62,402 nt of DNA from Candidatus Doudnabacteria bacterium (GCA_016218585.1 JACRDK010000013.1:1-62402), one strand, 5' to 3'; numbered from the stretch's first letter, positions 12,984 through 54,867 are shown. Numbers and translations: made by a program. Notes: generated by a model from the sequence alone, not told the origin.

Positions 12984-13319
12984 ATGGACGATTGCGTATT
13001 TTGCAACATCATCAACAAGACAATTGAAGCTCAAATTTTATTTGAAAATGAGCGCTTGGTTGTAATTAAAGACATTCTGCCCAAAGCCCCGGTACATTTG
13101 TTGATAATCCAAAAGAAGCATATTTTAAGCATTACCCACGTGGAAGCCCAAGACGAAGCTTTGGTAGGGGAAATGGTGGTAATTGCCAAAGAAATGGCTG
13201 TAAAGTACGGCGTTGGCGAAACCGGTTACAAATTAATTTTCAATGTTGGCCGCGATGGCGGACAGGTTATTCCTCATTTGCATTTGCACTTAATGGGCGG
13301 AAAGCAAATGGGAGAGTAG
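12984..13319 (+). CDS. HIT family (histidine triad) nucleotide hydrolase
   Basis: 111 aa with the C-terminal HLHLHLMGG histidine triad. Confidence 0.92.
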   Translation: MDDCVFCNIINKTIEAQILFENERLVVIKDILPKAPVHLLIIQKKHILSITHVEAQDEALVGEMVVIAKEMAVKYGVGETGYKLIFNVGRDGGQVIPHLHLHLMGGKQMGE

Positions 13320-13365
13320 GAAAATATAAGATTTAGGAATTAGGAATAACGAATTAGGAATAAAA

Positions 13366-13403
13366 ATTATGGATTAACCTCTCGGTTAACCCATAATTTT
13401 TTT
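13366..13403 (+). terminator. Rho-independent terminator after the HIT gene
   Basis: attatggattaacc-tctc-ggttaacccataat followed by T7. Confidence 0.8.
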
Positions 13404-13463
13404 AATATTTGCAAAAACCGGCGGAGTTTGTTATAATTAGCACATCTTATTTATGAAAGGAGA

Positions 13464-13712
13464 GTGAGTGTTTTGGTAGAAGTCAAGAAAAAAGACAATG
13501 AATCGTTTGATAGCTTACTGCGCCGTTTCAACCGCAAAATTCAGCAAAGCGGCGTACTTATTCGTGCCCGCAGAATTCGCTTTTTTGAACCTCCGAAGTC
13601 CCGCAATTTGCAAAAAGTTGCAGCTCGCAGAAGAACTCAAATAAGAGCTCAAAAAGAAGAATTAAAGCGTATGGGCAAGCCCGTTGCGCCTAAGCGTTTT
13701 GGAAGAAGATAG
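13464..13712 (+). CDS. rpsU: 30S ribosomal protein S21
   Basis: 82 aa, basic; ESFDSLLRRFNRKIQQSGVL..RR.FFEPPK is the S21 signature. The start is a GTG next to aaggagag; an in-frame TTG at 13473 is an alternative. Confidence 0.9.
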   Translation: MSVLVEVKKKDNESFDSLLRRFNRKIQQSGVLIRARRIRFFEPPKSRNLQKVAARRRTQIRAQKEELKRMGKPVAPKRFGRR

Positions 13713-13795
13713 CTAAAATATTGAAGTATGAATCAGGAATTATGAATCTGGGGAACCTTAATTCGTAATTCTTGATTCCTAATTCTCGAAAAGAT

Positions 13796-14239
13796 ATGAT
13801 TTCCTTATCGCAAATTGAACAAGATTTAGTGTCGGCCATGAAGGCTAAAGAGCAGGTGGCTGTGGAAGTTTTGCGCGGTTTAAAAACCAGAATTCAGAAT
13901 GAAAAAGTGGCTAAAACCAAAGCCGAACTTGATGAGGCGGAAATATTGGCTTTAGTAAGAAATGAAGTTAAAAGAAGAAAAGATTCCGCTGAAGCTTTTG
14001 TCTCGGGAGGCAGGCAAGAATTGGCTGACAAAGAGCTTATGGAAGCAAAAATTTTGGAAAAATACCTGCCGGCGGCAATGCCAGAAGAAGATATCGCTAA
14101 GATCGCGGAAGAAATTATTGCCGCAAACAGTTTTACTGCAGCCGATTTCGGCAAAGCAATGGGCCAATTAAAAGCTAAAATTGGCACTGCTGCCGAAGGC
14201 GCTATTATGGCAAAGGTTTTAAAAGAAAAACTAAAATAG
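13796..14239 (+). CDS. GatB/YqeY domain protein
   Basis: ATG at 13796. ISLSQIEQDLVSAMKAKE..LRGLK..I.NEKV is typical of YqeY. The rpsU-yqeY pairing is a common arrangement. Confidence 0.85.
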   Translation: MISLSQIEQDLVSAMKAKEQVAVEVLRGLKTRIQNEKVAKTKAELDEAEILALVRNEVKRRKDSAEAFVSGGRQELADKELMEAKILEKYLPAAMPEEDIAKIAEEIIAANSFTAADFGKAMGQLKAKIGTAAEGAIMAKVLKEKLK

Positions 14240-14240
14240 T

Positions 14241-14338
14241 ACCGCGGAAAGGACGCGGAACTTCACGCGGAATAGCGCGGAAGTTTAGATTAACTTATAG
14301 GTGCGGATTTTCCGCGATTTTCCGCGTTAGATTCCGTG
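14241..14338. repeat. Word-repeat hairpin spacer (CGCGGAA x4, then TTCCGCG x2)
   Basis: ccgcggaaaggacgcggaacttcacgcggaatagcgcggaag ... ttttccgcgattttccgcg. The same word occurs inside tkt at 56660-56690 and 56809-56845. Confidence 0.8.
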
Positions 14339-14349
14339 TCATTCAGCGT

Positions 14350-15600
14350 ATGAGCAAAGAACAATACATTGTCGGTTTAGATATAGGAACAGCCTGTGTA
14401 CGCGTGGTGCAAGCAAAACTTGACCAGGCCACAGGCAGTTTTAGTGTTATTGGGGCCAGTGAAGTGGCTTCTTCAGGCATGCGCCGCGGCGTAGTGGTTG
14501 ATATTGAGGAATCAGTTTCCGCAATTTCCAGCGCTTTGGAAAAAGTAGAAAGAATGACCGGCGTGCCCGTGGCTTCGGCCAATATTTCCGTTGGCGGAAA
14601 TCACATTTCTTCAATTTCCTCCCATGGCGTGATTGCCGTTTCCAGGGCAGACGGTGAAATTACCGAGAATGATATTATTCGCTGTATTGATGCCAGCCAG
14701 GCAATTTCCATTCCGCAAAATAAGGAAGTTTTACATGTGTTTCCAAAAACTTTTACGCTGGACGGACAAACCGGAATTAAAGATCCTCTCGGAATGACAG
14801 GGATTAGGCTGGAAGTGGACACCATTATTGTTCAGGCTGGGTTGCCGTTTGTGAAAAATCTTTCCCGTTCAGTAATGCAGGCGGGTTTGGAAATTGATGA
14901 TATGGTTTTAGCTCCCTGCGCCGCCGCTGAGAGTGTATTGAACAAGCGCCAAAAAGATTTGGGTGTTTGTTTGGTAGACTTAGGAGCCGGCACAACTTCA
15001 ATTGCCGTTTATGAGGAAGGCGATCTTCTTCATACCGTGGTTTTGCCGATTGGCAGTATGCATATTACTAACGACATTGCCATTGGCTTAAGGTGCAGCA
15101 TAGAAACCGCAGAAAAGGTTAAATTGCTTTATGGACACAGCGACCCGAAAGCCATAGATAAAGACGAAGAAATAGATTTGTCTAAACTAGACCCGAGCGA
15201 AGATCAGGCAACTTCCCGCGCTTACGTTGCGGAAATTATTGAAGCCCGTTTGGAAGAAATTTTTCGCCATGTTAACAGTGAACTTAAAAAAATTCAGCGC
15301 GACGGCAAGTTGCCATCCGGCATTGTCTTAACCGGCGGGGGATCGAAACTTCCGGGAACTGTGGAATTTGCAAAAAAACATTTGCACTTACCAACAGTAA
15401 TGGGACGGCCTCAGAATGTTAGCACTGTAATTGACCGCGTAGACGATCCAAATTTTGCTACCGCAGTTGGGCTTATTCTTTGGGGAGGCAAATTCTCCAG
15501 CGGTGGAGGAAATGCCCAGCTAGGAAGCATGGTAAAAAGCTTTATGAGTAACGAAAATGTGGCTAAATTAAGAAAATGGCTTAAATCATTTTTACCTTAG
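14350..15600 (+). CDS. ftsA: Cell division protein FtsA
   Basis: 416 aa with an actin-like ATPase fold (VGLDIGT, DLGAGTT, LTGGGS) and a C-terminal amphipathic tail. Confidence 0.95.
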   Translation: MSKEQYIVGLDIGTACVRVVQAKLDQATGSFSVIGASEVASSGMRRGVVVDIEESVSAISSALEKVERMTGVPVASANISVGGNHISSISSHGVIAVSRADGEITENDIIRCIDASQAISIPQNKEVLHVFPKTFTLDGQTGIKDPLGMTGIRLEVDTIIVQAGLPFVKNLSRSVMQAGLEIDDMVLAPCAAAESVLNKRQKDLGVCLVDLGAGTTSIAVYEEGDLLHTVVLPIGSMHITNDIAIGLRCSIETAEKVKLLYGHSDPKAIDKDEEIDLSKLDPSEDQATSRAYVAEIIEARLEEIFRHVNSELKKIQRDGKLPSGIVLTGGGSKLPGTVEFAKKHLHLPTVMGRPQNVSTVIDRVDDPNFATAVGLILWGGKFSSGGGNAQLGSMVKSFMSNENVAKLRKWLKSFLP

Positions 15601-15631
15601 TCCTTCTATAATTATAATTGTGTTTTTTATT

Positions 15632-15657
15632 AAAACCCCTTAAGTTAGGGGTTTTTT
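15632..15657 (+). terminator. Rho-independent terminator after ftsA
   Basis: aaaacccct-taagtt-aggggtttttt. Confidence 0.85.
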
Positions 15658-15669
15658 AATTAAAAAGGC

Positions 15670-15698
15670 TTGCCAAAATGCAATTTTTTTGGTACTAT
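15670..15698 (+). promoter_or_regulatory. Sigma-70-like promoter (TTGCCA-17-TACTAT) for island gene A
   Basis: Hexamers with an exact 17-nt spacer, in AT-rich host-like sequence about 100 nt upstream of 15802. Confidence 0.55.
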
Positions 15699-15801
15699 AT
15701 AAAGTCAAAATTAGCTCTTAGTTTTGTTTCGGGTTTTAATTATTAAAACCATTAACAAGGCTAAAAGTCTTGAGTCCAAAATTTCGTAGGAGGAATTTGA
15801 G

Positions 15802-16698
15802 ATGAGAAACCTGATGTTTGTCGCCATTGTGTTGATGGTGATGTTGCCTGTTTCTAACTGCTCGGCTCAGGAAAATGGAGCCGAACAGTTTGTGATGTTT
15901 GTGGCAGAACAAAACGGCGGCCTGATGGCCATGATGCAGGACAACGGGTATAGCCCGTGGCTCTACAGCCAGTTGAGCCGCGAGCCTGGGGGAGAGTTAC
16001 TATCGTGCGAGGAACAAAGCTTCGAGATTCGAAGCATTAGTCCCGGACAAAAGCTTTTCATGCAGAAGGGCGCCAAGGTGGACCGTGGACGTCTGTCTCA
16101 CTGCCTCGCAGTGGAGAACAGGCTGTTTGGCAAAACCAAAGGAGCGGTTTTACCCGCAACCTTGGCATCGAATTCTCCTGCGCCTAGCGTGCAGCCGCCT
16201 GTGTCCGCATCACCTGGGCCTTGCGAGGAAACGAAGGCGAAGGTTGTGTTCCTTGAGGTGTCCATTGACAACATCAACCAACAGCTCAAGGAGGCTCTGG
16301 CCGAGAACGACAAGTTAAAAGCTGAGCTTGGTAAAGCCAAGCAGCGGCAGAGTCATGGTGCGGAATCTGCAACTGATGGCCAAACCTTTTTTGCGGGTTG
16401 TGTGATAGCTGCAACTTTTTTCGGTCTGGTTGCTGTTGCGATTTCTGGGGTAAGCCTTTGGCGCAAGCAGCATTTTAGAACGTCGTGGGCAGCCGGAATA
16501 GAATACTGGCTCTTCGGTCCAGTATGCAGGCATTCGACCAAAGTAAAAAAGTGGCTGAGGTTGAGTTTTCAAATCAGCCCAGATTTACCCAGCACGACGG
16601 GACGAACTTTACTAGAGACCCATTCGGTCGGCAGACTTGCGGCCGAATGTGGTGCCTCGGTTTCTCCGGAACAGCCAACTGAAAAGGTGGCTGTGTGA
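15802..16698 (+). CDS. Bitopic envelope protein A: signal peptide, ecto-domain, Pro-rich linker, coiled coil, TM, cytoplasmic tail
   Basis: 298 aa. Strong SD (aggagg, 8 nt before ATG) and signal peptide MRNLMFVAIVLMVMLPVSNCSA. TM FFAGCVIAATFFGLVAVAISGV. G+C-richer than its neighbours. I recognise no family. Confidence 0.7.
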   Translation: MRNLMFVAIVLMVMLPVSNCSAQENGAEQFVMFVAEQNGGLMAMMQDNGYSPWLYSQLSREPGGELLSCEEQSFEIRSISPGQKLFMQKGAKVDRGRLSHCLAVENRLFGKTKGAVLPATLASNSPAPSVQPPVSASPGPCEETKAKVVFLEVSIDNINQQLKEALAENDKLKAELGKAKQRQSHGAESATDGQTFFAGCVIAATFFGLVAVAISGVSLWRKQHFRTSWAAGIEYWLFGPVCRHSTKVKKWLRLSFQISPDLPSTTGRTLLETHSVGRLAAECGASVSPEQPTEKVAV

Positions 16699-16706
16699 AT
16701 AGTTTC

Positions 16707-16799
16707 AACATCTAGCAGACTTGATTTAATGCACTGCCTCGCGTGGCCCTGCATTTAACAGGGTCTTGCCGATGGCATCAGAACAATCTTGTCTCAACA
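16707..16799 (+). repeat. 93-nt 3-prime-flank repeat, copy 1
   Basis: Differs from 19769-19860 by 2 substitutions and 1 indel. It contains the hairpin ggccctg-catttaa-cagggtc. Confidence 0.9.
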
Positions 16800-16884
16800 T
16801 ATGCAATGGTGGTTCTTTTGGAATTTTTTCCTAGGGAGCCGCTTTTTGTTTATAAAAAAATAACCCACAAATAATTTGGGGTAT

Positions 16885-16929
16885 AAAAAAAGCGAGGCAG
16901 GAAAAGTCCGGTTGGGACGATTCCTGCCT
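16885..16929 (-). terminator. Rho-independent terminator after the PEP-CTERM gene
   Basis: The minus strand reads aggcaggaa..ttcctgcct followed by cgcttttttt. Confidence 0.7.
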
Positions 16930-16951
16930 GCTGTTGCTGTAGTCCTGTGGA

Positions 16952-18349
16952 CTACTGAAGTTGATTCTGCCGGCGTTTGCGGGCAAGCGCGAGGGCACAG
17001 AGCCCGGCGCCGAGCATCGCGAGTGTGGCCGGCTCGGGGACTTCGGATTTCGCGGTGTCGAAATTGGCTCTTGCCGATACCGTATCGGATGTCCAATTGC
17101 TTACCGTAAACTTGATCGTCGTGAGCGCGCTAGCTAGTTGCATAGGCGCAAAAGTGTTGTCAGCGGCCGCGTTGCAGCTGGTGCTTCCGCCTGCCGGTCC
17201 GGTACAACCGAGTCCGGAAATATTCGCTCCCAAATCTACTGCACCCGGATTGCCAACGGTAGTCATGCTGCCCTTTGTTACTGAGGGTACGTGAGAACCG
17301 AAGGAACTCCCGGTTACCGCCATTGAGGCGTGAAGCCCGGTGATGTCCTTCGGGTCAAAGTACAGGAGGATGGTCAAGATGTTGTCGACCGGAGCGCCGC
17401 TTGCGTTGAAGCTGGCAATGGAGACGGACACGTTGCTGAAATCTGCTCCACCGAATATCCCGGTAATCGTAACGAGTCCTCCAACGAGGGTGTCGTTGAT
17501 TATCCAATTCCCCGGGGTTCCAGTAACGTTGACATTCTGAGCCGGCCCGCCGTTCTGAGAGAACTGCACGAGAGGGTTCAGAGGTGTCGCTGTCGCCGGG
17601 ACGGCTATGGCCGTAATGGCGAGGACAATCATGAGAGCACAGGCGCATTGCTTGATGGAAAGCTTCGGCATTTTGTGCCGGTTCTTCCAGAGCAACAGGC
17701 CCAGAAGGCCGAGGCCCATCAGCGCGTAGCTGTTGGGTTCAGGGACAGGGGACCCACCGAGCTGAAAGTCGGTGAACGTTGCCTGCTGCCCTCTGTGATC
17801 AGCGTTGACGCTGCGCAAGCGCAGCAGCAACTGTTCGAACTCGCCGAATGAACCCACGTTGGTCTTGAGGAATGTTCCTTGGGTAAGCACTCCATCAAAC
17901 ACGTGGTCGACGCTGCCGTCGGCGTAGAGCTTGGTTGAGACTGTGTGGGGTGTTCCCAAAGCTCGTGGCGTGAGGTCGAAGTATACAACGTTCTCAACGG
18001 CTGGGCCGTTGTCGTAACGTTCGTAGCTAATGGCCGAACAGCACGCAAATGCGCTGCCGTCCTGGATCCGCGGGTTGTGGACGTTCGAGATGTTCTGCTG
18101 GAACATATCGATGTTCGCACCCGGGTTGTCCAGGTAAGAGAAGGAAGCCATGGTAAACATGGTGTTGAGCACCAGGTCCACCTCGGTGTTGCTGTTCTGG
18201 GTCAGGGTGATCGACCCATCTAGATTTACGACGGCGATTCCGTCGCCGACCACATCCCAGCTTTGCCCTTTCCAGGCAATCGTGGTCGCACTTGCCACCA
18301 TACAGATGGCGAATGCCAAAATCAAAAAAACGCTCGCGCGTTTTGTCAT
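16952..18349 (-). CDS. Tandem PEP-CTERM pre-protein fusion (two signal-peptide plus PEP-CTERM modules in one ORF)
   Basis: 465 aa with SD aggagg. Module 1 is aa 1-226 and ends VPEPNSYALMGLGLLGLLLWKNRHK. Module 2 starts at Met227 (17671) with its own signal peptide and ends VPEPATLAMLGAGLCALALARKRRQ. No stop codon separates them. Confidence 0.8.
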   Translation of the reverse strand: MTKRASVFLILAFAICMVASATTIAWKGQSWDVVGDGIAVVNLDGSITLTQNSNTEVDLVLNTMFTMASFSYLDNPGANIDMFQQNISNVHNPRIQDGSAFACCSAISYERYDNGPAVENVVYFDLTPRALGTPHTVSTKLYADGSVDHVFDGVLTQGTFLKTNVGSFGEFEQLLLRLRSVNADHRGQQATFTDFQLGGSPVPEPNSYALMGLGLLGLLLWKNRHKMPKLSIKQCACALMIVLAITAIAVPATATPLNPLVQFSQNGGPAQNVNVTGTPGNWIINDTLVGGLVTITGIFGGADFSNVSVSIASFNASGAPVDNILTILLYFDPKDITGLHASMAVTGSSFGSHVPSVTKGSMTTVGNPGAVDLGANISGLGCTGPAGGSTSCNAAADNTFAPMQLASALTTIKFTVSNWTSDTVSARANFDTAKSEVPEPATLAMLGAGLCALALARKRRQNQLQ

Positions 18350-18456
18350 GCGTATTCCTCCTGAGGAATTTACTAATAGCCCCTCTAAGGGTTCTTAGCG
18401 TTTCATAAGTGTAATGAAATAGTCGGGAAAAGTCAAGCCCTTTTATAGGCTTAGTC

Positions 18457-18485
18457 TTGCAATTGTTTTATATTTATGTTATAGT
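18457..18485 (+). promoter_or_regulatory. Sigma-70-like promoter (TTGCAA-17-TATAGT) for island gene B
   Basis: Exact 17-nt spacer; about 170-nt AT-rich leader before 18658. Confidence 0.55.
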
Positions 18486-18657
18486 AATGTCCTGAAGTTA
18501 AATAAATTTTCTTGTGTTGTTTTAAGCCCAAAATTTTTTTTGGACAAAAACAAGACCAGAAAAACCACTTCTTCTTTGAAGCGGCCAGTTTTGGTTTACT
18601 ATATTTTGTACAATGCGCTACTGGGAAATTTAGCGCAAAGAAAAACTAGTTAGGGGG

Positions 18658-19743
18658 ATGCACAAGATGTTTAAGATGTCACGCCTTGCGGTCGTGTTGA
18701 CCGTATTGGCGAGTTACGCATTTGCGGACGACCGTGTCCGCATTGCTACGGTCGAACTTGGGCCAACACAAGCCTTGGAAAACAATCACCGACACTGGGA
18801 TGAGTTGGGATCGATTGAACACCAAGACGGCAGTCTGTGGAAGCCCTGTGAATACTCCACTGTATCGGACAAGGAGTTTTATGTCCCATTACAGCCTCAG
18901 CGCAACAGAGTTAAGGCTTTGGCGTTGATCGCCGAGTCCAGAAACTGCACTGCGAAACCGATTTCGCCCGTTGCTTTGGCTTCTACGCCACCGGCCAAGC
19001 CGCTCGTTCAAACACAGCCCGCAAAGACCGAGGTTCAGGCCAAGGTTCAGCCGGCTCCGATCCAGGCCAAGTATCAACCGTCCGTGTTGACGCTTACGCC
19101 TCGGGCGAGAGAGACTGCGCTGGAAAAAGAGCTTAGCGCTTACCGCGCTCGGTTGAATTCCGCCGACGACGCTCGGGTTCAGATGATCAGGGCGATGAAG
19201 GATGATCTGGAACAAAACTACATCCGCAAGGATGGAGTTGTTCCAAAAGAACAACACGAACGCGACCTGGCAAAAGCCAGACTCATCGGCACCTGGTCGA
19301 CAGCATCCGTTGGTTTGATCTGCGCGATTTTGGGTTTTTTCGGCAACGAAAGGCTTCGTAACCGGAACATAAGAAAGCGCAGTCGAAAAGCTGGGCATCA
19401 CAATCAAGAAACCAGTCAAGAAGATGGTGTTCTGTTTTTTCTGAAAGAACCTCAAACTGACAATTTCGCTGAGCCGGTGTTCGTTGCGAGGTACGCCAAA
19501 AGCCATCACGACATTCCAGAGCTACCCGATCTGAAATATCGTGGCAATGGTTTTCCTATCACGCCTTCGGACGGACTAACGGCCGTCCAGATGCAACATT
19601 TTGCGTTGCATCGCAAGGTCAGGGCTTGGATGGAAAACAACCCAAGCGTCAACGCTGAAGTCGTTGCCATCAGCGACCAGAACAGTTCCGTCAGAACTCG
19701 TAGTTCCGAAAGGCGCACTGACAAACGCACCGCAATTGCCTAA
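18658..19743 (+). CDS. Bitopic envelope protein B (same architecture as protein A)
   Basis: 361 aa: signal peptide, Pro/Gln-rich linker (PAKPLVQTQPAKTEVQAKVQPAP), coiled coil, TM (WSTASVGLICAILGFF) and a 130-aa tail. The start may instead be ATG 18667 or 18676. Confidence 0.7.
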   Translation: MHKMFKMSRLAVVLTVLASYAFADDRVRIATVELGPTQALENNHRHWDELGSIEHQDGSLWKPCEYSTVSDKEFYVPLQPQRNRVKALALIAESRNCTAKPISPVALASTPPAKPLVQTQPAKTEVQAKVQPAPIQAKYQPSVLTLTPRARETALEKELSAYRARLNSADDARVQMIRAMKDDLEQNYIRKDGVVPKEQHERDLAKARLIGTWSTASVGLICAILGFFGNERLRNRNIRKRSRKAGHHNQETSQEDGVLFFLKEPQTDNFAEPVFVARYAKSHHDIPELPDLKYRGNGFPITPSDGLTAVQMQHFALHRKVRAWMENNPSVNAEVVAISDQNSSVRTRSSERRTDKRTAIA

Positions 19744-19768
19744 AGGTTTAGGCTAACATCAACTGTGT

Positions 19769-19860
19769 AACATCAGCAGACTCGATTTAATGCACTGCCT
19801 CGCTTGGCCCTGCATTTAACAGGGTCTTGCCGATGGCATCAGAACAATCTTGTCTCAACA
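19769..19860 (+). repeat. 93-nt 3-prime-flank repeat, copy 2
   Basis: See 16707-16799. Confidence 0.9.
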
Positions 19861-19968
19861 CAAAGCAATTACTGATCTGTGGTTTATCCATAGGTCGGTT
19901 TTTTGTTGCCAATTTTGTTTTTTGTTAAAAATATGCCATAATAATAAAGTAAAATTAAAATATACATT

Positions 19969-22656
19969 ATGTTTGGAAGGGGATCGAGTCCTGAATTTAA
20001 TAGTATAAATCCGGATTCATACACGACAGACGAAACAAAAAAAGAAAATAAAGAAAAATCAACAGACGGAAATAAAAAAAAGTTACGGGATTTTTTTAAA
20101 CGCAATAAGTCTAAAGAAAAAGAAAAACAACCGGAAAATGAAGCCTCGGCAAATTCAGATTCTGCCGGGGAAGTTTTGGTTGGTGAAATTGTTTCTGACG
20201 ACGAAATTCCACAGTATATAAAAGATGGGGTAAGTAATCCGCAAACAGCACAAGAAGCAGCTTCGGCAATAAATGAAAAATCCGTTTTTGGACAAAAACT
20301 AAAAAAAACCTGGGAAACCTTAAAACCCGTTGTTGCTAGCGCTGCTGCCGGTGCCGCCGTGCGTTCTGCCACCAAGTTTGCTTTAAAGCGCACATTGGAT
20401 TTTGGCACTGTCGGCGCTTCGGCTGGGGCCGGGGCAGTTGTTGGCGGCGGTATGGAATTTTACAAACAGAACAAGGCGGAAAACCGCCGGTTGTTTAACT
20501 TGGAAACTTATAACAAAACGCTGGATGGTTATAAAGAAATGTCGGCATTAGAAAAAGCGGAAAGTTATGTAGCGATTACCGAAGCATTGGAGCAGCGAGG
20601 GCTAGACCGCGGGCAGCATGCCGAGCTCTCCGCCCGGCTCACTACTTTAAAAGTTGCTTTGGAAAATAAAACCGAATGGGAAAGTCTACCCGAGGCCGAA
20701 CGCTTGCTGAAATATATGAAAGCCCGGGAACAAGCCGAAAGGGAAGAGCTGCCCAAGGCGATGAAAAAAGAAGCGGGAAAAATTTTAAAAGATTTATTTA
20801 AAGACAAAAATTTAAATAAGAATTGGAAAAAAATTAGCACCCATACTATAAAAGGTGCCGTTATTGGCGCGGGAGCCGGAGCCTTAGGTGCTTGGGCTTT
20901 TGACCATTTTATTGGCTCTGCTGTAGATTCACATCACAGCGCGCAAGTTGTAGCGGAAAAAGCAGCGGAAGCTGCTAAATCAAACTTGGCGCATCAGGCT
21001 GAGACTGTTGTAAATTTACCCAGCAGCCAGGACACACAGGAACTGCATAAAACAGTTTGGGATACAGCCAAACATTTTTTGGAAAGCCATGGCGTTAAGC
21101 ATCCATCGGTAAAAGATCTTAATGAGGCAATGATTACCATTTGCAAAGAAAATAATATAGAAATAACCGGACACCATCCTGGAGCAGCAGGGGGCACCTG
21201 GTATGAGGGCTTTAATCATGCTCACCAAGAAGGTGCTAATACAATAAAGGATATTAATTTAAAAGATGGAGTTGAATTAAAAGGTTTTGATAAGTTGGGC
21301 GATATTATTGCCAAGGCCGGCGGCACAGTGCCAAGGCCGACAGAAGTTAAGTTGTCCTGGCCGGTGGATTTGCACGGCCTTCACCCTTCTTCTAATGGTC
21401 CAGTTGAAGTAAGTGCTGCCCGCGCGGCAGAGGCTTTGAGCTCACAGGATCAAAGTTTGAGAAAAATAACTTTGATTATTGGAGGCGGTATAGCTGTGGC
21501 CGCTGAGGCAATGCATTATATTAGTTGGCAGAAGAAGCAAAAGGAAAAAAAATCTCTAACTCAAATAGAAAGTAATACTTCTCCGCAAGAGCCAACGCAG
21601 CCTTCTCCCGCTCAAGAGAGCGTTCCGCCCAAAGAACAAACGCAAACAAACAAACCAGGTGTTTGGGATAAAATAAATTCTAAAATAAAGCGAGTCCCGG
21701 TTGAAAAGACCCTGGACGCTTTAAAGTTGGAATCAGAAAAAAAATTGGAAGCTGCAAAAAAAGAAGCGGAAAATTTGTATCTTAAAGAAAACGAAAGAAT
21801 GCAGGCTTTGGAAAAATTTGTATATTCCTACCAGGCGCAAACCGAACCAAAAGCGGAGAAGGAAGAGCAGTATGAAAAGCTAAGGGACAAGTTGGGTAAA
21901 ATTTATAACAAAGAAGCCCAAATGCGCCTAATGGAAAATATGTCTTTGGACGAACAAAAAGATTTTACGGAATTTTGGAAAAATTTTACATTGGATCTAC
22001 AGGATCGTTATCAAAAGGCTGAAGTACGTGCCGCGCAAATATGGAGTCAAGAAGCTGGGAGTATAAAAGAAAATGAACCTAAGCCGGATGCGGGGGGCGA
22101 CGAAGCTCCAAAGAAAGCAAAGACTGCGCCTGCAAACAAACCGGGAGCGCTGCCTAAAAATAATGAAAATAAGCCTGCTCAAAAACCCGGAGAACAGGTA
22201 AAACCAGCCTCGCTTGGTTCGGAAGTAGGGAAGTCTAACGCTAAAGAAAAAGCAGACAGAAAAACAGAACTTTTACAAGAAATGAAAGATTTGGGCTTAA
22301 TGAGACCTGATGCTACAAAAAAGAATTTTAGTAATGAGGAGAGGATAGCTCTTAATAAATTTGTTTATTTAATGCAGGAAAAAGATACAAGCTTGCTTCA
22401 GAGTGTGTATGGTGAAGCGGCATTTGAGAAACGGAAAGTCTTAACCTCTGCCTTTAGAGGTTTAAATCAAAATAAGCCAGAGCTATTAATGAAATTTTGC
22501 AGGGACGCTTTGGCTTTAGCCGATCAAAACAAAGATAACGGTGAGGGCATTAAAAAAATGCTGACAGAGATGAAGGCGATAAACGCTGAGATTGCTAAAA
22601 TAGTAGATGAGGAAATTAAAAAACATAAAGCCCCTGTTAAAAAGAGAAAAAAATAA
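19969..22656 (+). CDS. Large Lys/Glu-rich membrane-associated protein, unknown family
   Basis: 895 aa uninterrupted ORF. It has Gly/Ala-rich hydrophobic segments (GASAGAGAVVGGG, GAVIGAGAGALGAWAF, ITLIIGGGIAVAAEA) and long coiled-coil-like K/E stretches. Confidence 0.7.
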   Translation: MFGRGSSPEFNSINPDSYTTDETKKENKEKSTDGNKKKLRDFFKRNKSKEKEKQPENEASANSDSAGEVLVGEIVSDDEIPQYIKDGVSNPQTAQEAASAINEKSVFGQKLKKTWETLKPVVASAAAGAAVRSATKFALKRTLDFGTVGASAGAGAVVGGGMEFYKQNKAENRRLFNLETYNKTLDGYKEMSALEKAESYVAITEALEQRGLDRGQHAELSARLTTLKVALENKTEWESLPEAERLLKYMKAREQAEREELPKAMKKEAGKILKDLFKDKNLNKNWKKISTHTIKGAVIGAGAGALGAWAFDHFIGSAVDSHHSAQVVAEKAAEAAKSNLAHQAETVVNLPSSQDTQELHKTVWDTAKHFLESHGVKHPSVKDLNEAMITICKENNIEITGHHPGAAGGTWYEGFNHAHQEGANTIKDINLKDGVELKGFDKLGDIIAKAGGTVPRPTEVKLSWPVDLHGLHPSSNGPVEVSAARAAEALSSQDQSLRKITLIIGGGIAVAAEAMHYISWQKKQKEKKSLTQIESNTSPQEPTQPSPAQESVPPKEQTQTNKPGVWDKINSKIKRVPVEKTLDALKLESEKKLEAAKKEAENLYLKENERMQALEKFVYSYQAQTEPKAEKEEQYEKLRDKLGKIYNKEAQMRLMENMSLDEQKDFTEFWKNFTLDLQDRYQKAEVRAAQIWSQEAGSIKENEPKPDAGGDEAPKKAKTAPANKPGALPKNNENKPAQKPGEQVKPASLGSEVGKSNAKEKADRKTELLQEMKDLGLMRPDATKKNFSNEERIALNKFVYLMQEKDTSLLQSVYGEAAFEKRKVLTSAFRGLNQNKPELLMKFCRDALALADQNKDNGEGIKKMLTEMKAINAEIAKIVDEEIKKHKAPVKKRKK

Positions 22657-22660
22657 TTAT

Positions 22661-22978
22661 ATGTTAAACCAAGAAACATTATTTCAAAATGGCGGGGAAG
22701 AGCTTTTAAAAGAATTGGGGCTTGCAGAAGTGGATCCTGAGCAAAAGCTTAAATTGGTAGAAACCCTGGCGCAGAGGTTTGAGAGCGTAACTTTTAAAAC
22801 AACCCTTGGCCTAATGAACGACGCCCAAAGGCTGGAGTATCTGGAGGCAGTTAAAGATCCGGATAAAAACGGAGCAAAAATTGAGGAGCTGGCCTCTCAG
22901 GTAGAAGGTTTGGCCGAGGAAATTGAAGCTGCCTGGCTGTTTGAGCTTGAGTCTTTAAAGCATATTTTAAAAAAATAG
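22661..22978 (+). CDS. Small acidic helical protein, unknown function
   Basis: ATG at 22661, 5 nt after the preceding stop; 105 aa. The longer track ORF (22607) overlaps the upstream gene. Confidence 0.6.
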   Translation: MLNQETLFQNGGEELLKELGLAEVDPEQKLKLVETLAQRFESVTFKTTLGLMNDAQRLEYLEAVKDPDKNGAKIEELASQVEGLAEEIEAAWLFELESLKHILKK

Positions 22979-23157: not shown

Positions 23158-24351
23158 ATGAAAAAAACTATGGAAGTTAAACCAAAAATTGAAACGTTTG
23201 CCAGAATTAAGGTCTTAGGTATTGGCGGCTCGGGTACTAACGCCGTTAACCGTATGACGCAGCTTGGCATTCGTGGAGTAGAATTCATCGCCGTAAATAC
23301 CGATGCGCAGGCTTTGCATAATAACCAAGCTGACCGCAAAGTTCACATTGGCAAAAGCGCGACCAAAGGTTTGGGCAGCGGAATGAATCCGGAATTAGGC
23401 AGGCAAGCTGCTGAAGAGAGCGTGGAAGAACTGGAAGAAGTTATCGACAACGCCGATATGGTTTTTATAACCTGCGGGCTTGGCGGCGGCACCGGTTCAG
23501 GCGCAGCGCCGATTGTTGCGGAGATCGCCAAAAATAAAGGCGTGCTCACCGTGGGTGTTGTAACCAAACCGTTTACTTTTGAAGGAAGCAAAAGAAAAGA
23601 AGTTGCCGAGAATGCTTACGACAATTTAAAAGATAAAGTAGACGCAATAATTTCCATTCACAACGATCGCATATTGCAAATTATAGACAAGAAGACTTCT
23701 TTGGTAGACGCCTTTAAAACTGTTGACGAAGTTTTACGCCAGGGTATTGCCGGTATCTCCGATCTCATTACCACCCATGGTATTGTTAACGCAGACTTTG
23801 CCGACGTGAAATCTATTATGCAAGATGCCGGAACCGCGTTAATGGGTATTGGAAGAGCCAGCGGCGAGACTAGAGCGCAAGACGCGGCCAGAGCGGCAAT
23901 TAATTCTCCGCTTCTCGAAATGACTATCGACGGCGCCAAGGGAGTGTTGTTCAACATTACCGGCGGCAGCTCTTTGGGTATGTTTGAAATAGACGAAGCT
24001 GCTAAAGTAATTACAAAGAGCATTGATCCTGATGCCAAGGTAAAGTTCGGCGCGGTGATAGACGAAGCAATGGGCGACGAAGTAAGAATTACAGTTATTG
24101 CTACCGGCTTTGACGAATCCAGCAAGCGCAATAACGCGGTGTCTATGGTTTTAAATGAAGAGCCAAAGAAACCGAAGTTTACCGAGTCGAGAATTTTCCC
24201 AAACCCGATGCCGGCTCCGGAAGTAAGAAAGCCGATGTTTAATCCAAAACCTGCTCCGCCAATCGACAACATTGAAGTGAGCGCAGATGAAAGCCAAACC
24301 CCGGAAGACGAACTTGATATCCCGGCTTTCATTCGCAAGAAAATGAAATAA
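23158..24351 (+). CDS. ftsZ: Cell division protein FtsZ
   Basis: 397 aa with the tubulin signature GGGTGSGAAP and the conserved C-terminal peptide DIPAFIRKK. Confidence 0.97.
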   Translation: MKKTMEVKPKIETFARIKVLGIGGSGTNAVNRMTQLGIRGVEFIAVNTDAQALHNNQADRKVHIGKSATKGLGSGMNPELGRQAAEESVEELEEVIDNADMVFITCGLGGGTGSGAAPIVAEIAKNKGVLTVGVVTKPFTFEGSKRKEVAENAYDNLKDKVDAIISIHNDRILQIIDKKTSLVDAFKTVDEVLRQGIAGISDLITTHGIVNADFADVKSIMQDAGTALMGIGRASGETRAQDAARAAINSPLLEMTIDGAKGVLFNITGGSSLGMFEIDEAAKVITKSIDPDAKVKFGAVIDEAMGDEVRITVIATGFDESSKRNNAVSMVLNEEPKKPKFTESRIFPNPMPAPEVRKPMFNPKPAPPIDNIEVSADESQTPEDELDIPAFIRKKMK

Positions 24352-25257: not shown

Positions 25258-25404
25258 ATTAGTGACGTAAGGCGAGCAGTCTTGCTTGCAAGGCAAGCGA
25301 GCTTAAACTGCGAAAAGAAGTTTGCTCCTTGGGGGCCCCGAGATATCTTTATTTATCCACTGGTGAATTTTAAATTTTGTGATACAATTATTTTTACAAC
25401 TCAT

Positions 25405-25560
25405 CTGCGATTAGTTGCCCCGAGAACGGGGTTTGGTTTAGGAAAGTCGGGTTTAATTCCCGCGCTGTGCCGCAACTGTAAAGCCTAAAAAATTTAGGAC
25501 AAGCCAGGCACTACCAGCTAATTGTACGACGGTCTCTTTCCCCGAGCAGGGAACAGGGAT
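25405..25560 (+). promoter_or_regulatory. Cobalamin (B12) riboswitch
   Basis: B12-box core aggaaagtcgggtttaattcccgcgctgtgccgcaactgtaa, then aagccaggcac. This fits the GGGAA..GGTG.AA.TCC..CCCGC.ACTGTAA..GCCA pattern. It lies directly upstream of 25593. Confidence 0.75.
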
Positions 25561-26968: not shown

Positions 26969-29620
26969 ATGCAATCCAAAGTAAACTTACAAGAACGAAA
27001 GGTCAATGGTCTCTCCGAGCTCGGAGAAAAAATATTTTTAGATCGCTACGCGGTTAAGGACGTTAAGCGCGAAACTTTAAGCGCAGGAGATACTGTGGTA
27101 GTTTTGGTTAATCCAAAAACCGGACAGCGCGAAATAGGCACTATAGAAAATATTAACCGCGAGACTCGCGAAGTAAGCGTGCGCATGCGCGGCGGAGAAT
27201 TAGAATATCGCACCATTGAGCACGTGGACAAGCCGCTTGAATTAGTGCCGGAGCAAATGTTTGACCGGATTGCCAGACATATTGCCAGCGTAGAAAAAAC
27301 CGTTGAGAAACAAAATGAATGGGAAGGAAAATTTAGAAAATTAATGGACGACTGGAAGTATGTTCCGGCTGGGCGCATTTTTACCGGCGCCGGTACCGGA
27401 CAGAATTTAACTTTTTATAACTGCTACGTTATTCCGCACCCAAAAGACAGCCGCCATGGAATTTTTGAAACCTTGGGACAAATGGCTGAAATTATGTCCC
27501 GCGGCGGCGGCGTTGGCATTAATGTTTCTTCTCTTCGCCCGCGCTACGCTTATGTTAAAGGCGTAAACGGCCGTTCTTCCGGCTCTGTTTCCTGGGCCTC
27601 TTTATATAGTTTTGTTACCGGACTTATTGAACAGGGCGGCAGCAGGCGCGGCGCGTTGATGCTGATTTTAAATGTTTGGCATCCCGATGTAATAGATTTT
27701 ATTAATTCCAAAAAAGAAGCAGGCAAAATTACCAATGCCAACATTTCCGTAGGCATTACCGATGATTTTATGCAGGCCGTAAAAGAAGACAAGCCCTGGG
27801 ATTTAATTTTCCCGGACACTTCCGATCCGCTTTATGCTACCAAGTGGGACGGCAACATTAAGCGCTGGCAGGAAATGGGCGGTAAAGTTATTAAGCACAA
27901 AACCGTGCGCGCCCAGGATATTTGGGAAAATATTATTTCTTCCGCTTGGGCTTCCGCTGAGCCGGGAATGTATTTTATTGACCGCGCAAACTATTATTCC
28001 AACTCCTGGTACTATGCTGACCTGCCTTGCACCAACCCTTGCGGCGAGCAGCCGCTTCCAGCCTGGGGTGTGTGTAATTTAGGGCATGTCAACTTGGCTA
28101 AGCACATTAATAAAGAGAGCGGTGAAGTAATGTGGAATGAACTTAAAGCTACTGTTCAGTACGCGGTTCGTTTTCAGGATAATGTTATAGACGCTACTCC
28201 GTATTTCTTTGACGAAAACAAAGACCAGCAGTTATCTGAACGCCGTGTTGGCATGGGTACAATTGGTTTGGCGGAAATGATGATTTATAAAGGAATAAAG
28301 TACGGCAGCCCGGAAGCCGTGGAATTTATTGACAAACTGTACCAGTTTATTGCCGTTACCGCTTATGAGACATCTATAGAATTGGCTCGCGAAAAAGGTT
28401 CCTTTGCCAAGTTCAACGCGGACAAGTTTTTGCAAAGCGGGTTTATGAAAAATATGCCCGGATATATCCGCGACCTGGTTGCCAAATACGGCATTCGCAA
28501 TGTTACAATTATGACCCAGGCTCCGACTGGTACAGTAGGAACTATGGTTGGCACATCTACCGGCATTGAGCCGTTCTTCTCCTGGACTTACTTTAGAAAA
28601 TCCCGTCTGGGCGTTCATGAAGAAAAAATTAAATTGGCGCAGGACTGGTTAGATAAACATCCGGGCCAGGACCTGCCGGACTATTTTGCCACCGCTATGT
28701 CGCTTGCTCCCGAAGAACACGTAAGAGTGCAGGCCGCCGTTCAGCGCTGGACCGATAGCGCTATTTCCAAAACTTGCAACGCCCCGCAAAATTATACTGT
28801 TGAACAGACCAAAGAGCTCTATACTTTAATGTATGACTTAGGCTGCAAGGGCGGAACTATTTATCGCGACGGCAGCAGAGATGAACAAATTTTGGCGACC
28901 GACCACAAAAAATTGGGCAAAGACGCTTCCGACCAGGTGCAGGCCAAACAAGACGCCGCCGCCGGTTCTCAGCCAAAAGAAGTTATGTCTGTTTCCGGAG
29001 ATAATTTACAGATTAAAATTGCTCCGCGCCAGCGCCCAAATATAATGCAGGGCATTACCTATAAAATGCAGACTGCTTACGGCAACTTGTATGTGACTAT
29101 AAATGAAGATAGCCAGGGACCGTTTGAAGTTTTTGCCCAAATGGGCAAGGCCGGTGGTTTCTTCTCCGCTCAAACGGAAGCTATTACCCGGTTGATTTCT
29201 TTGGCCTTGCGTTCCAATGTAGCTATAGAAGAAATTATTGAGCAGCTTAAGGGTATTCGCGGTCCGGACGTTTCTTTCTCGGACGGCGGCGTAGTCTTCT
29301 CTCTGCCGGATGCCGTGGCTAAAGTTTTGGACAAACATATTAAGCGCGCAGACAAACAGCTTACTTTAAATTTGCCGGTGGCGGAAGCGGTTACTGTTTC
29401 AGAAAAAGAAGAAATGGTTTTAAAAACCGAAGAGAGAATTTTGGAAACAATTGCCGAAGAGAAAATAAAGACAAACGGCACGCTAACCTATAAAAAGACG
29501 CAAAAAGTTTCCATTGCCAATTTAGGCAACGCGCCGGTTTGTCCTTCTTGTGCTAATATGCTGGTTTTTGCCGAAGGCTGCCAGAAATGTGAGAGTTGCG
29601 GTTACTCCAAGTGCGGATAG
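26969..29620 (+). CDS. nrdJ: Adenosylcobalamin-dependent (class II) ribonucleotide reductase
   Basis: 883 aa with a class II RNR core (NPCGEQPL, TNPCGE active-site Cys loop, SKTCN) and a C-terminal CxxC..CxxC zinc ribbon tail. Confidence 0.9.
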   Translation: MQSKVNLQERKVNGLSELGEKIFLDRYAVKDVKRETLSAGDTVVVLVNPKTGQREIGTIENINRETREVSVRMRGGELEYRTIEHVDKPLELVPEQMFDRIARHIASVEKTVEKQNEWEGKFRKLMDDWKYVPAGRIFTGAGTGQNLTFYNCYVIPHPKDSRHGIFETLGQMAEIMSRGGGVGINVSSLRPRYAYVKGVNGRSSGSVSWASLYSFVTGLIEQGGSRRGALMLILNVWHPDVIDFINSKKEAGKITNANISVGITDDFMQAVKEDKPWDLIFPDTSDPLYATKWDGNIKRWQEMGGKVIKHKTVRAQDIWENIISSAWASAEPGMYFIDRANYYSNSWYYADLPCTNPCGEQPLPAWGVCNLGHVNLAKHINKESGEVMWNELKATVQYAVRFQDNVIDATPYFFDENKDQQLSERRVGMGTIGLAEMMIYKGIKYGSPEAVEFIDKLYQFIAVTAYETSIELAREKGSFAKFNADKFLQSGFMKNMPGYIRDLVAKYGIRNVTIMTQAPTGTVGTMVGTSTGIEPFFSWTYFRKSRLGVHEEKIKLAQDWLDKHPGQDLPDYFATAMSLAPEEHVRVQAAVQRWTDSAISKTCNAPQNYTVEQTKELYTLMYDLGCKGGTIYRDGSRDEQILATDHKKLGKDASDQVQAKQDAAAGSQPKEVMSVSGDNLQIKIAPRQRPNIMQGITYKMQTAYGNLYVTINEDSQGPFEVFAQMGKAGGFFSAQTEAITRLISLALRSNVAIEEIIEQLKGIRGPDVSFSDGGVVFSLPDAVAKVLDKHIKRADKQLTLNLPVAEAVTVSEKEEMVLKTEERILETIAEEKIKTNGTLTYKKTQKVSIANLGNAPVCPSCANMLVFAEGCQKCESCGYSKCG

Positions 29621-29864: not shown

Positions 29865-30494
29865 ATGACTGAAAAGAAAAAGAAAATTAAAATGCCAAAA
29901 AAGTTTTCTGACGAGCCGAAGGGTTTGGTAATTTGCTATATTGGCGCGGGCAAGGGCAAGACTACGGCCGCTATGGGTATGGCCGTGCGCGCGGCAGGGG
30001 ACGGCAAAAATGTTTTTATTTTACAGTTCGTTAAAGCCGGAAACAAAACCGACGATAAAGTTAAAGAAGGTGAATGGCCGATTTCCTCGGAAATTAATTT
30101 TTTTGATAATATTAGTTATTCTGGAAATATTGGCACGATTGAAAATGAGCAGGTAGGTTTGGGTTTTGTCGGGATACTTGGAGACAAAAAAGAAAAAGAC
30201 ATCCACATTCGCGCCGCGCTTAAAGGCGTGGAAAGAGCTAGGGAAATAATTACCTCCGGCAAGTATGAGTTGGTAATTTTAGACGAAATAATTTCGGCGC
30301 TCGAAGTTGGGATATTGGAAGAAAGAGATATTTTAGATTTAATAAAGCTCAAAGGCCCTTTGCAGCATTTGGTAATTACCGGACATAATCAGTATCCAAA
30401 AATTTTAAAACAGTGCGATTTAGTGACGGAAATGAAAATGATCCAGCACCCTTATTATAAAGGGATCCTGGCGCAAAAAGGGATAGACTATTGA
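29865..30494 (+). CDS. cobO: Cob(I)alamin/cob(I)yrinic acid a,c-diamide adenosyltransferase (CobA/CobO/BtuR type)
   Basis: 209 aa with P-loop GAGKGKTTAA, ILDEI, VITGHN and a HPY.KGI..QKGIDY C-terminus. Confidence 0.85.
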   Translation: MTEKKKKIKMPKKFSDEPKGLVICYIGAGKGKTTAAMGMAVRAAGDGKNVFILQFVKAGNKTDDKVKEGEWPISSEINFFDNISYSGNIGTIENEQVGLGFVGILGDKKEKDIHIRAALKGVERAREIITSGKYELVILDEIISALEVGILEERDILDLIKLKGPLQHLVITGHNQYPKILKQCDLVTEMKMIQHPYYKGILAQKGIDY

Positions 30495-47560: not shown

Positions 47561-47571
47561 TCTCTTCTCCG

Positions 47572-54618: not shown

Positions 54619-54637
54619 AAGTTTAATTGAATAAGTT

Positions 54638-54737
54638 TTTATCCAGAGAGCAGTTAGGGTTCTAGCCCGATGATCTGCCAGCAACCCTGAGGAAACTCGA
54701 ATGGGTGCTAAATCTAGCCCCACGCGGGAAAGATAAT
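54638..54737 (+). promoter_or_regulatory. SAM-I (S-box) riboswitch aptamer
   Basis: ttatccagagagcagttagggttctagcccgatgatctgccagcaaccc...ggtgctaaatctagcc...gaaagataa matches the conserved S-box core. It lies upstream of metK. Confidence 0.85.
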
Positions 54738-54745
54738 TTACATCT

Positions 54746-54769
54746 CATCCGCTTTGGCGGATTTTTTTG
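54746..54769 (+). terminator. Riboswitch expression-platform terminator
   Basis: atccgc-tttg-gcggat followed by T7. Confidence 0.8.
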
Positions 54770-54867
54770 TGCCATCCTTACCCCGAGCATTTTTATTTAG
54801 GGGTAACACAGGACGATTAGGGCATTATTTAAATAATATTAATAAAAAATTATTAAGCAGAGAATTT

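Follow-up and report, generated by a model that had tools for sequence, protein, structure and literature searches.

The window analyzed here, a stretch of 62,402 nucleotides from a Candidatus Doudnabacteria genome (GCA_016218585.1, JACRDK010000013.1:1-62402), contains a G+C-rich island at positions 15670–19860, between the genes ftsA and ftsZ. The island comprises two plus-strand genes, referred to here as A and B, which are predicted to encode single-pass membrane proteins; a minus-strand open reading frame (ORF) with PEP-CTERM tags that lies between them; and a directly repeated element, R, of which one copy follows gene A (R1) and the other follows gene B (R2). The coordinates of these features are collected in Table 1. 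FtsA of the window is 85% identical to the FtsA of Candidatus Doudnabacteria metagenome-assembled genomes (MAGs), and the remaining genes of the window form an ordinary housekeeping set, in line with a genome of the candidate phyla radiation (CPR, or Patescibacteria). The host is Candidatus Doudnabacteria.

The four coding modules of the island have a G+C content of 0.525–0.574 and a G+C content at third codon positions (GC3) of 0.57–0.73, vs. 0.424 ± 0.037 and 0.425 ± 0.059, respectively, for the other 48 ORFs of the window. The two modules of the PEP-CTERM ORF represent the window maximum (GC3 0.65–0.73), and gene B (G+C 0.53, GC3 0.57) has the same composition as gene A. The tetranucleotide distance to the window mean peaks at 15–19.5 kb, where it reaches 0.33–0.40 compared to approximately 0.18. 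A distinct G+C-richer island, as proposed in the original prediction (made from the sequence alone), is therefore evident from the G+C, GC3 and tetranucleotide profiles alike. The prediction that promoters and leaders in this region are AT-rich and host-like is confirmed as well, with a G+C content of 0.28–0.36 for the three intergenic leaders of the island.

Promoter-like sites are present upstream of gene A and on both sides of the divergent region between the PEP-CTERM ORF and gene B (Table 1). The leader of gene A carries a ribosome-binding site (AGGAGGAAT), and an 18-nt stretch of this leader shows 83% identity to the leader of the PEP-CTERM ORF, on the opposite strand. In addition, the leaders of the unit formed by the PEP-CTERM ORF and gene B (the PEP-B unit) share a 15-nt exact word with g19969, the first ORF downstream of the island. 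Terminator structures follow both copies of R, and the PEP-CTERM ORF has an intrinsic terminator of its own; the sequence AAAAAAAG immediately before the stem of the latter on the plus strand constitutes the T-run past the stem on the minus strand. With this arrangement, the island would consist of three independent transcription units, each combining an AT-rich sigma-70-type promoter with a G+C-rich coding sequence.

Table 1. Features of the ftsA–ftsZ region of the window (positions are those of the window, except in the last row; aa, amino acids; GC, G+C content; TM, transmembrane segment)
Feature	Position	Strand	Description
ftsA	14350..15600	+	Pfam FtsA and SHS2_FTSA; left conserved flank of the island
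Promoter and leader of gene A	15601..15801	+	GC 0.28
Promoter-like site TTGCCA-17-TACTAT	15670-15698	+	Upstream of gene A
Gene A	15802..16698	+	298 aa; signal peptide, ecto-domain, Pro-rich linker, stalk helix, TM, cytoplasmic tail
R1	16706..16799	+	Repeat copy 1; 3' untranslated region of A
Weak hairpin and U6 after R1	~16811-16830	+	Terminator-like
Terminator of PEP-CTERM ORF	16895..16929	-	Intrinsic; hairpin with 15-bp arms, then T-run
PEP-CTERM ORF	16952..18349	-	465 aa; two modules fused in frame
PEP module 2	16952-17671	-	239 aa
PEP module 1	17672-18349	-	226 aa
Divergent promoter region	18350..18657	.	Serves PEP-CTERM ORF and gene B; GC 0.35
Promoter-like site, PEP-CTERM ORF side	18436-18408	-	
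Promoter-like sites, gene B side	18457-18485 and 18576-18605	+	
Gene B	18658..19743	+	361 aa (358 aa if the start is at 18667)
R2	19767..19860	+	Repeat copy 2; 3' untranslated region of B
Terminator after R2	19871..19899	+	Canonical intrinsic; 12-bp stem then TTTTTTG, 10 nt past R2
AT-rich remainder of insert	19969..22978	+	895-aa ORF and 123-aa ORF; GC 0.40-0.42, host-like
g19969	19969-22656	+	895-aa Lys/Glu-rich protein; glycine-rich, weakly hydrophobic segments
g22607	22607-22978	+	123-aa ORF
ftsZ	23158..24351	+	Pfam Tubulin and FtsZ_C; right conserved flank of the island
Promoter block copies in related locus L062	9841-9879, 11347-11385, 12902-12940		

The spacing between ftsA and ftsZ was compared over 55 related loci that were retrieved. 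In all loci with an FtsA of at most 66% identity to that of the window, the two genes are separated by only 4–238 bp (29/29 loci). In the clade of the window (FtsA identity of at least 70%), the gap measures 2.6, 5.4 or 12.1 kb, or extends beyond the 3–10 kb of downstream sequence at hand, in which case the gap is a lower bound. A single locus of this clade (L015) keeps ftsA and ftsZ adjacent. The gap in the window itself is 7.6 kb. Its contents differ from genome to genome in the clade and consist of ORFs with a G+C content of 0.52–0.62 and signal peptides, which are often predicted to be bitopic; such a variable region downstream of ftsA was seen in L003, L006, L007, L010, L011, L013, L016, L041, and L062. 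A Pfam scan of ten gap ORFs from these relatives yielded no domain, with the exception of an IS5-like DDE transposase in L007, and the gap of L062 also encodes a small GIY-YIG protein. As the gaps are filled by different G+C-rich genes across the clade, the island of the window is one instance of a clade-wide variable region and not an isolated foreign insertion.

The gap genes of the relatives likewise have an AT-rich promoter for each gene. In L062, a 39-nt promoter block (TATTGACA...N17...TATAAT) precedes three successive island genes with 62–79% identity between the copies; since this block recurs, the repeated element of that genome is a promoter and not a 3' element. In the relatives, AT-rich genes for a small protein (with DUF5663 in L062) and for a very large, charged protein come after the G+C-rich part. 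Their window counterparts are the ORFs g22607 and g19969, the latter in the place of the giant AT-rich ORFs that stand before ftsZ. No family was found for g19969, and tblastn with this protein in the 55 related loci gave no match. Gene order of the Doudnabacteria type (YqeY where present and ftsA, and ftsZ in L031 and L036) was also observed in L031, L036, and L042, which lie in MAGs labelled Binatia, Acidobacteriaceae and Methylomirabilota and are probably mis-binned.

The protein encoded by gene A starts with a hydrophobic signal segment, followed by an ecto-domain of approximately 80 aa with two cysteines and a transmembrane segment at residues 193–220. AlphaFold modeling, based on an alignment of seven sequences, predicts the ecto-domain (residues 30–110) as β-α-α-β-α with a predicted local distance difference test score (pLDDT) of 75–89, as well as the stalk helix (residues 142–184) and the transmembrane segment, and leaves the tail disordered. 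A word-indexed search among 5.8 billion proteins returned a self-match only. A full HMMER scan of 1.84 billion representatives identified six relatives (P0003–P0006, P0008, and P0009; E-values from 4.5e-10 to 1.5e-4), all with the same architecture including the conserved pair of cysteines. The original prediction had assigned A and B to no known family. This is correct in that neither matched a curated family, but A does have these relatives.

The ecto-domains of the A family share the motif G-x-G-L-M-x-A-L-x2-A-G-Y-x3-L-Y-x-E-L-R ... C ... F-E-I-R ... K-V-x-Q-x-R-L-x2-C-L-A-x-E-N, which is present in A, and a juxtamembrane tail motif (W-R-x3-F/Y-x2-SW(A/T)A-x2-EYWL) is common to A, P0005, and P0008. 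The scores of A against the family profiles (E-values of 1.1e-38 and 2.5e-34) are not independent, as A is included in the profiles, and the identity between A and its homologues in the alignment is only 24–33%. P0003 is encoded in L062 approximately 1 kb downstream of ftsA, with one minus-strand ORF in between, on a contig of 143 kb with a gene order like that of the window. P0009 corresponds to the ORF of L003 that starts approximately 210 bp past ftsA, and the ecto-domain profile additionally detects an ORF in L016. On the basis of sequence, A is a member of a rare and uncharacterized family of type-I bitopic proteins encoded at the same ftsA-proximal locus in relatives. In every genome examined, the A-family genes have a G+C content of 0.49–0.54, with flanks of 0.30–0.36. 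As the elevated G+C content is found throughout despite the low sequence identity, it is an old property of the family and not a sign of recent import of A.

The topology predicted for the A ecto-domain is compatible with LysM modules, with a β-α-α-β core within approximately 80 aa directly past the signal peptide, from which it differs by an extra C-terminal helix and the conserved pair of cysteines. In a Foldseek search with the full-length model, the top neighbours were chains containing LysM (2l9y, 5c8o, and 8rhf), with E-values of 1.1–4.7 and a probability of at most 0.30. None of the seven A-family members has a Pfam match to LysM (PF01476) at E-values up to 10. Sequence and profile searches of the PDB with the A family gave nothing meaningful, and Foldseek of the A model against the viral structures of BFVD gave nothing significant. 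We therefore treat a LysM-like nature of the modeled ecto-domain as a lead only.

Gene B follows the same plan as gene A, as originally predicted: a signal peptide, an ecto-domain of approximately 85 aa with two cysteines, a Pro/Gln-rich linker, a long helix (residues 145–187), a single transmembrane segment (residues 209–228), and a basic cytoplasmic tail of approximately 130 aa. It was also correctly noted that A and B show no obvious sequence similarity (BLASTP, E = 0.9). B is the first non-member that is matched by the ecto-domain profile of A, and the match is in the right position, with a weak E-value of 0.0027 in approximately 10^4 ORFs; aligning the A family with B by hhalign gave a probability of 3%. 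Homology of B to the A family can thus not be demonstrated. No relatives of B were found in the word-indexed search of 5.8 billion proteins, a PDB sequence search gave nothing meaningful, and the AlphaFold model of B, made without an alignment, has a pLDDT of 39 and is unusable for a fold search. B is an orphan that shares the layout of A.

The ORF between the repeats had been described as a PEP-CTERM gene. It matches PF07589 (55.6 bits, cut-off 20.7) and TIGR02595 (49.8 bits, cut-off 16) in two stretches each, and judged by these curated cut-offs its PEP-CTERM tags are bona fide. It is not a single gene of this type, but consists of two modules fused in frame, each of which is complete, with a signal peptide, a domain and a PEP-CTERM tag. 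Hydrophobic N-terminal segments span residues 1–27 of module 1 and 4–32 of module 2, and the likeness of the two modules is confined to the tag. The junction (...LLWKNRHK|MPKLSIK... at 17669–17674) has no intervening stop, and because of the fusion the tag of module 1 is internal, while that of module 2 is at the extreme C-terminus. The product of the fused ORF is predicted to have three membrane segments and two ecto-domains. An identical fused ORF is present in an independent assembly (see below), which shows that the fusion is not a sequencing slip peculiar to the window contig. The passenger domains have no relatives in the word-indexed search of the 5.8 billion proteins and gave nothing meaningful in the PDB, and tblastn with the ORF against plasmids and viral contigs found no match.

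PEP-CTERM tags reportedly belong to a protein-sorting system with exosortase that was described by Haft and colleagues in 2006. Both modules of the ORF resemble the proteins of this system in their signal peptide and in tags in which VPEP is followed by a hydrophobic helix and a basic cluster. They differ from it in the CPR host, in the internal position of the first tag and in passenger domains that lack relatives; moreover, the window ORFs that were scanned with Pfam include no exosortase, and no PEP-CTERM tails were found in approximately 0.9 Mb of related loci. The CPR is a monoderm-like lineage without an outer membrane. Both this lineage and the in-frame double module misfit the exosortase paradigm, and we do not classify the ORF as part of a working PEP-CTERM/exosortase system. 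A link between exosortase and Patescibacteria was not found in the literature searched, where the only co-mention of PEP-CTERM and the candidate phyla radiation cites work on a Zoogloea host.

A second G+C-richer patch is present on the minus strand at 46886–48525 (G+C 0.49–0.52, GC3 up to 0.63). Its two ORFs (46886–47710 and 47572–48525) encode Rce1-like/CPBP intramembrane proteases, overlap by 139 nt and could represent a single gene with a frameshift. A weak, sub-threshold similarity to sorting proteases of the myxosortase type (MrtJ, MrtS, and MrtP) was noted for the longer ORF. Proteases of the CPBP/Rce1 type are not exosortases; the patch is noteworthy because PEP-CTERM proteins are encoded 29 kb away and no exosortase was seen.

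The repeat R is the only strong direct repeat in the region of 15–21 kb. It was identified as a gapless match of 86 nt (16714–16799 and 19775–19860) with 98% identity, in which the copies differ at 16722 (T/C) and 16743 (G/T) and which ends in an exact core of 56 nt (16744–16799 and 19805–19860). One indel adds approximately 8 nt upstream (AACATC(T)AGC), resulting in an element of approximately 93 nt; the near-identical 93-nt element with two substitutions and one indel that had been reported to follow both stop codons is thus real. R1 begins 8 nt past the stop codon of A, and R2 approximately 24 nt past that of B. A 77-nt pattern of R, with three mismatches allowed, occurs at these two sites of the window only (0 expected), and the 62-kb window contains no third copy. 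The sequences upstream of R1 and R2 are unrelated. The copies are spaced 3,061 bp from start to start, a unit that comprises the PEP-CTERM ORF, gene B and one R.

All six frames of R contain stop codons. In both genes, R is located past the stop codon but ahead of the terminator, and it is thus almost certainly transcribed. The stem GGCCCTG/CAGGGTC noted in the original prediction is the tip of an imperfect hairpin of approximately 78 nt (about 16717–16794 in R1), with a folding free energy of about -29 kcal/mol. Compared to dinucleotide shuffles, the sense strand of both copies folds with a z-score of about -3; the antisense folds are inconsistent (-0.9 and -3.3). R ends in ...GUCUCAACA without a U-run and does not by itself resemble an intrinsic terminator. 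The absence of a U-tract that had been noted thus applies to the sequence directly past R, but the hairpin is longer than was described and terminators follow both copies. A 5' hairpin (AAUGCA...UGCAUU; 16725–16760 and 19786–19821) can compete with the apical GGCCCUG/CAGGGUC stem, as the two are mutually exclusive; of the two copies, only copy 2 shows this hairpin in its centroid structure.

The layout of the island was compared with an independent assembly, consisting of contigs of the Logan collection (run SRR12113407) that were reached via exact-protein look-ups. The first contig is 100% identical to window positions 13171–16773 and encodes S21, YqeY, FtsA, and A, followed by the start of R. 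As it spans both ftsA and A, the junction at 15.7 kb is not chimeric, and a chimeric assembly at this point, for which a check had been proposed, is excluded. The second contig is 100% identical to 16770–19834. The break points of these contigs are those that a de Bruijn graph with k = 31 must make at the exact repeat of 56 nt, and both copies of R, with their substitutions, are present in the reads. The k = 31 graph by itself fits a tandem layout as well as a loop or circle attached via R. Both substitutions of R are on the incoming side, so the exits are not phased in this graph. Exact-protein look-ups with g19969, FtsZ and alternative starts of B, made for other strains or layouts, were either not on record or returned the same sample only.

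The most likely origin of the layout, in our interpretation, is recombination at R. R would serve as the short, conserved flank on the 3' side where cassettes become joined, and a single crossover at this site (of the Campbell type, or by unequal homologous recombination) would have placed the PEP-B-R cassette behind A-R, plausibly after DNA uptake. The classical signature of a single crossover or unequal exchange is a short shared segment duplicated directly on either side of a discrete block, with upstream sequences that are unrelated. The competence genes dprA and comEC are present in the window, which makes uptake and recombination of related DNA plausible. The repeats resemble the outcome of Campbell-type integration or unequal crossing-over in that two copies with 98% identity enclose a discrete 3,061-bp block. 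They differ from it in that there is no integrase, att core, or phage or plasmid gene, in that the repeat is a 3' untranslated hairpin of approximately 90 bp, and in that neither an empty site nor a donor molecule was observed for the PEP-B unit. As a structural consequence, and not necessarily a function, the direct repeats render the PEP-B unit prone to loss by recombination. We propose that surface-protein genes form a lineage-specific island with fast turnover between the normally adjacent ftsA and ftsZ, that the region represents the G+C-rich half of this island, and that recombination at R gave rise to its present form; in our estimate, this proposal is about as probable as it is improbable.

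Several observations weigh against this proposal. Neither an A-R-g19969 arrangement nor a B-R donor was found in any collection searched, so that the proposed recombination has the direct-repeat signature as its only basis. Within the k = 31 graph, R is the sole link of the PEP-B unit to the chromosome. The sharp edges of R, with 98% identity beside unrelated sequence, also fit a discrete functional or mobile unit, and for a pure scar it is somewhat surprising that both copies are located past genes that share one architecture. Finally, the LysM-like reading of the A ecto-domain is not significant (Foldseek E-value of about 1, no Pfam LysM).

As a first alternative, R could be a cis-acting RNA module under selection that is located in the 3' untranslated regions of A and B and co-regulates both genes, with its copies kept identical by selection or gene conversion. 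It could act as a stability, processing or regulator-binding element, or as the source of a small RNA derived from the 3' untranslated region. Its position on the same strand, between stop codon and terminator and past two genes of the same architecture, would fit such a role, as would the sharp boundaries of the near-identity, the sense-strand fold that exceeds shuffles in both copies, and the competing hairpin in the ensemble of copy 2. R also resembles 3' untranslated stem-loops and repetitive extragenic palindromic (REP) elements, which protect mRNA 3' ends or punctuate operons in bacteria: it folds into a stable, imperfect hairpin that lacks a U-tract, is located past the stop codon and ahead of the terminator, and recurs after more than one gene. 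Conservation argues against the module. Rfam contains no match to R at gathering thresholds, nor at E-values up to 10 in a permissive scan, and neither blastn nor a covariance model detected R in related Doudnabacteria loci totalling 957 kb, with all retrieved genes of the A family included. The A homologue P0005 ends in an ordinary terminator, the A homologues of other genomes either end in such terminators or carry no repeated element, and no repeated 3' elements were found in the islands of relatives, where the only repeats are the L062 promoters and Pro-rich coding repeats. Two copies this similar offer no covariation for analysis, and neither substitution is informative.

The shared 3' RNA element of the original prediction is thus not borne out; what was found is the ordinary duplicated spacer, without conservation elsewhere, that had been named there as the contrary outcome. 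R looks like a recent local duplication and not like a conserved family, and judging by conservation a dedicated, shared RNA function is not supported. We consider the selected RNA module unlikely. As an RNA, R would probably serve as a protective or processing hairpin at the 3' end, which is a reasonable role. An origin from tRNA or tmRNA was rejected, as ARAGORN identifies only tRNA-Val and tRNA-Gly, both elsewhere in the window.

The layout could also be a product of assembly. In this case the chromosome would run from A via R to g19969, and the 3,061-bp unit would be a separate circle, reside elsewhere or represent a strain variant. The unit indeed forms a self-loop on the 56-nt exact node of R in the k = 31 contigs (16770–19834), and the two substitutions, located in the 5' part of R, are silent on the exit. 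PEP-CTERM tags are unexpected in the CPR, and were not encountered in the related loci; in addition, the modules that carry them have the highest GC3 of the window. On the other hand, ordinary reads of 100–150 nt are long enough for the phasing of R, which takes 58 nt, and assembly of the 62-kb contig ran across both copies. No replication or recombination function is encoded in the unit, and its promoters and leaders are AT-rich and host-like and share the 18-nt motif with A and the 15-nt word with g19969. Gene B equals gene A in G+C content and GC3, A is contiguous with ftsA, and relatives carry comparable G+C-rich genes at this locus. An assembly product is accordingly improbable.

Still less probable is that R is a miniature non-autonomous mobile element, such as a palindrome derived from REP, from a miniature inverted-repeat transposable element (MITE) or from IS200/IS605, that was inserted twice independently. 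R has discrete ends and the form of an extended, imperfect palindrome (AGACTTGATT...AATCTTGTCT), its hairpin is enclosed in both copies by a short direct word ((C/T)AACAT ... CAACA(T/C)), and the ftsA–ftsZ islands are plastic, as illustrated by the IS5-like transposase in L007. However, two copies in 62 kb and none in the 957 kb of related loci do not make R a multi-copy element of the MITE or REP kind; REP elements number tens to hundreds per genome and show conservation within groups of species. A 26-nt core of R gave no exact word matches in 185,579 GTDB species genomes, IMG/VR and JGI metagenomes, nor did a 28-nt word from its 3' half in JGI metagenomes; these scans detect exact matches only and would miss diverged copies. 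The scanned window ORFs include neither a transposase nor a REP-associated tyrosine transposase (RAYT), and the same orientation and the same flanking word fit a single origin better than two insertions.

That the unit is an integron-like gene cassette with R as its attC site has a negligible probability, since the similarities (an ORF closely trailed by an imperfect palindrome of 60–140 nt, with repeated sites alike and at high identity in the window, as in chromosomal cassette arrays) are countered by outer stems of R that read AGAC/GTCT and not RYYYAAC/GTTRRRY, end words (CAACA/TCAACA) that are direct and not inverted, the lack of an integron integrase (IntI) or other tyrosine recombinase domain in the window ORFs scanned, and a cassette that would consist of two divergent units with their own promoters.

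Returning to recombination at R within a variable island, the products of A, the PEP-CTERM fusion and B would all be displayed on the cell surface. Bacteria of the CPR are thought to live attached to other cells, and to our knowledge next to nothing has been established about their contact molecules. The island proteins are likely to attach to a partner cell or matrix, or to recognize one, and the envelope or host-interaction function suggested in the original prediction remains the natural reading of the type-I bitopic surface-protein plan of A and B. In this respect, the Doudnabacteria island would work like the known variable surface-protein regions of host-associated bacteria. A further-reaching proposal, which we consider a long shot, is that the ftsA–ftsZ gap is a dedicated exchange site at which G+C-rich cassettes, some of them from Gram-negative partners (which would account for the PEP-CTERM tags), are placed behind host promoters and shuffled by homologous recombination at R-like hairpins, with R also serving as an RNA element shared by the cassettes that are expressed. 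If true, this would be a new type of recombination-based surface variation in episymbiotic CPR bacteria.

New in the present analysis are a clade-specific variable region between ftsA and ftsZ in which AT-rich promoters precede genes of persistently high G+C content, a bitopic A-type family with a confidently predicted ecto-domain, and PEP-CTERM tags in a CPR genome. The first provides a defined chromosomal site, in one clade of Doudnabacteria, with a quick turnover of surface-protein genes. The ecto-domain of the A family could be expressed and tested for binding. The PEP-CTERM tags, present in a lineage that would be expected to lack both an outer membrane and exosortase, raise the question whether they are mere membrane anchors or are processed by another protease. 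R by itself is of local interest only, as a marker of recent rearrangement and possible excision site.

Other features were observed elsewhere in the window. A SAM-I riboswitch (54636–54739; 49.5 bits, above the gathering score) immediately precedes the gene for S-adenosylmethionine synthetase (54754–56070). A cobalamin riboswitch (25395–25536; 38 bits, above the gathering score) is located upstream of a small ORF, and past it are nrdR and the genes for a ribonucleotide reductase with a TSCPD domain (26969–29620) and a corrinoid adenosyltransferase (29865–30494). Finally, the gene at 50188–52455 encodes a protein of 755 aa with four lamin-tail (LTD) domains, which has a host-like composition and is likely a surface or extracellular protein.

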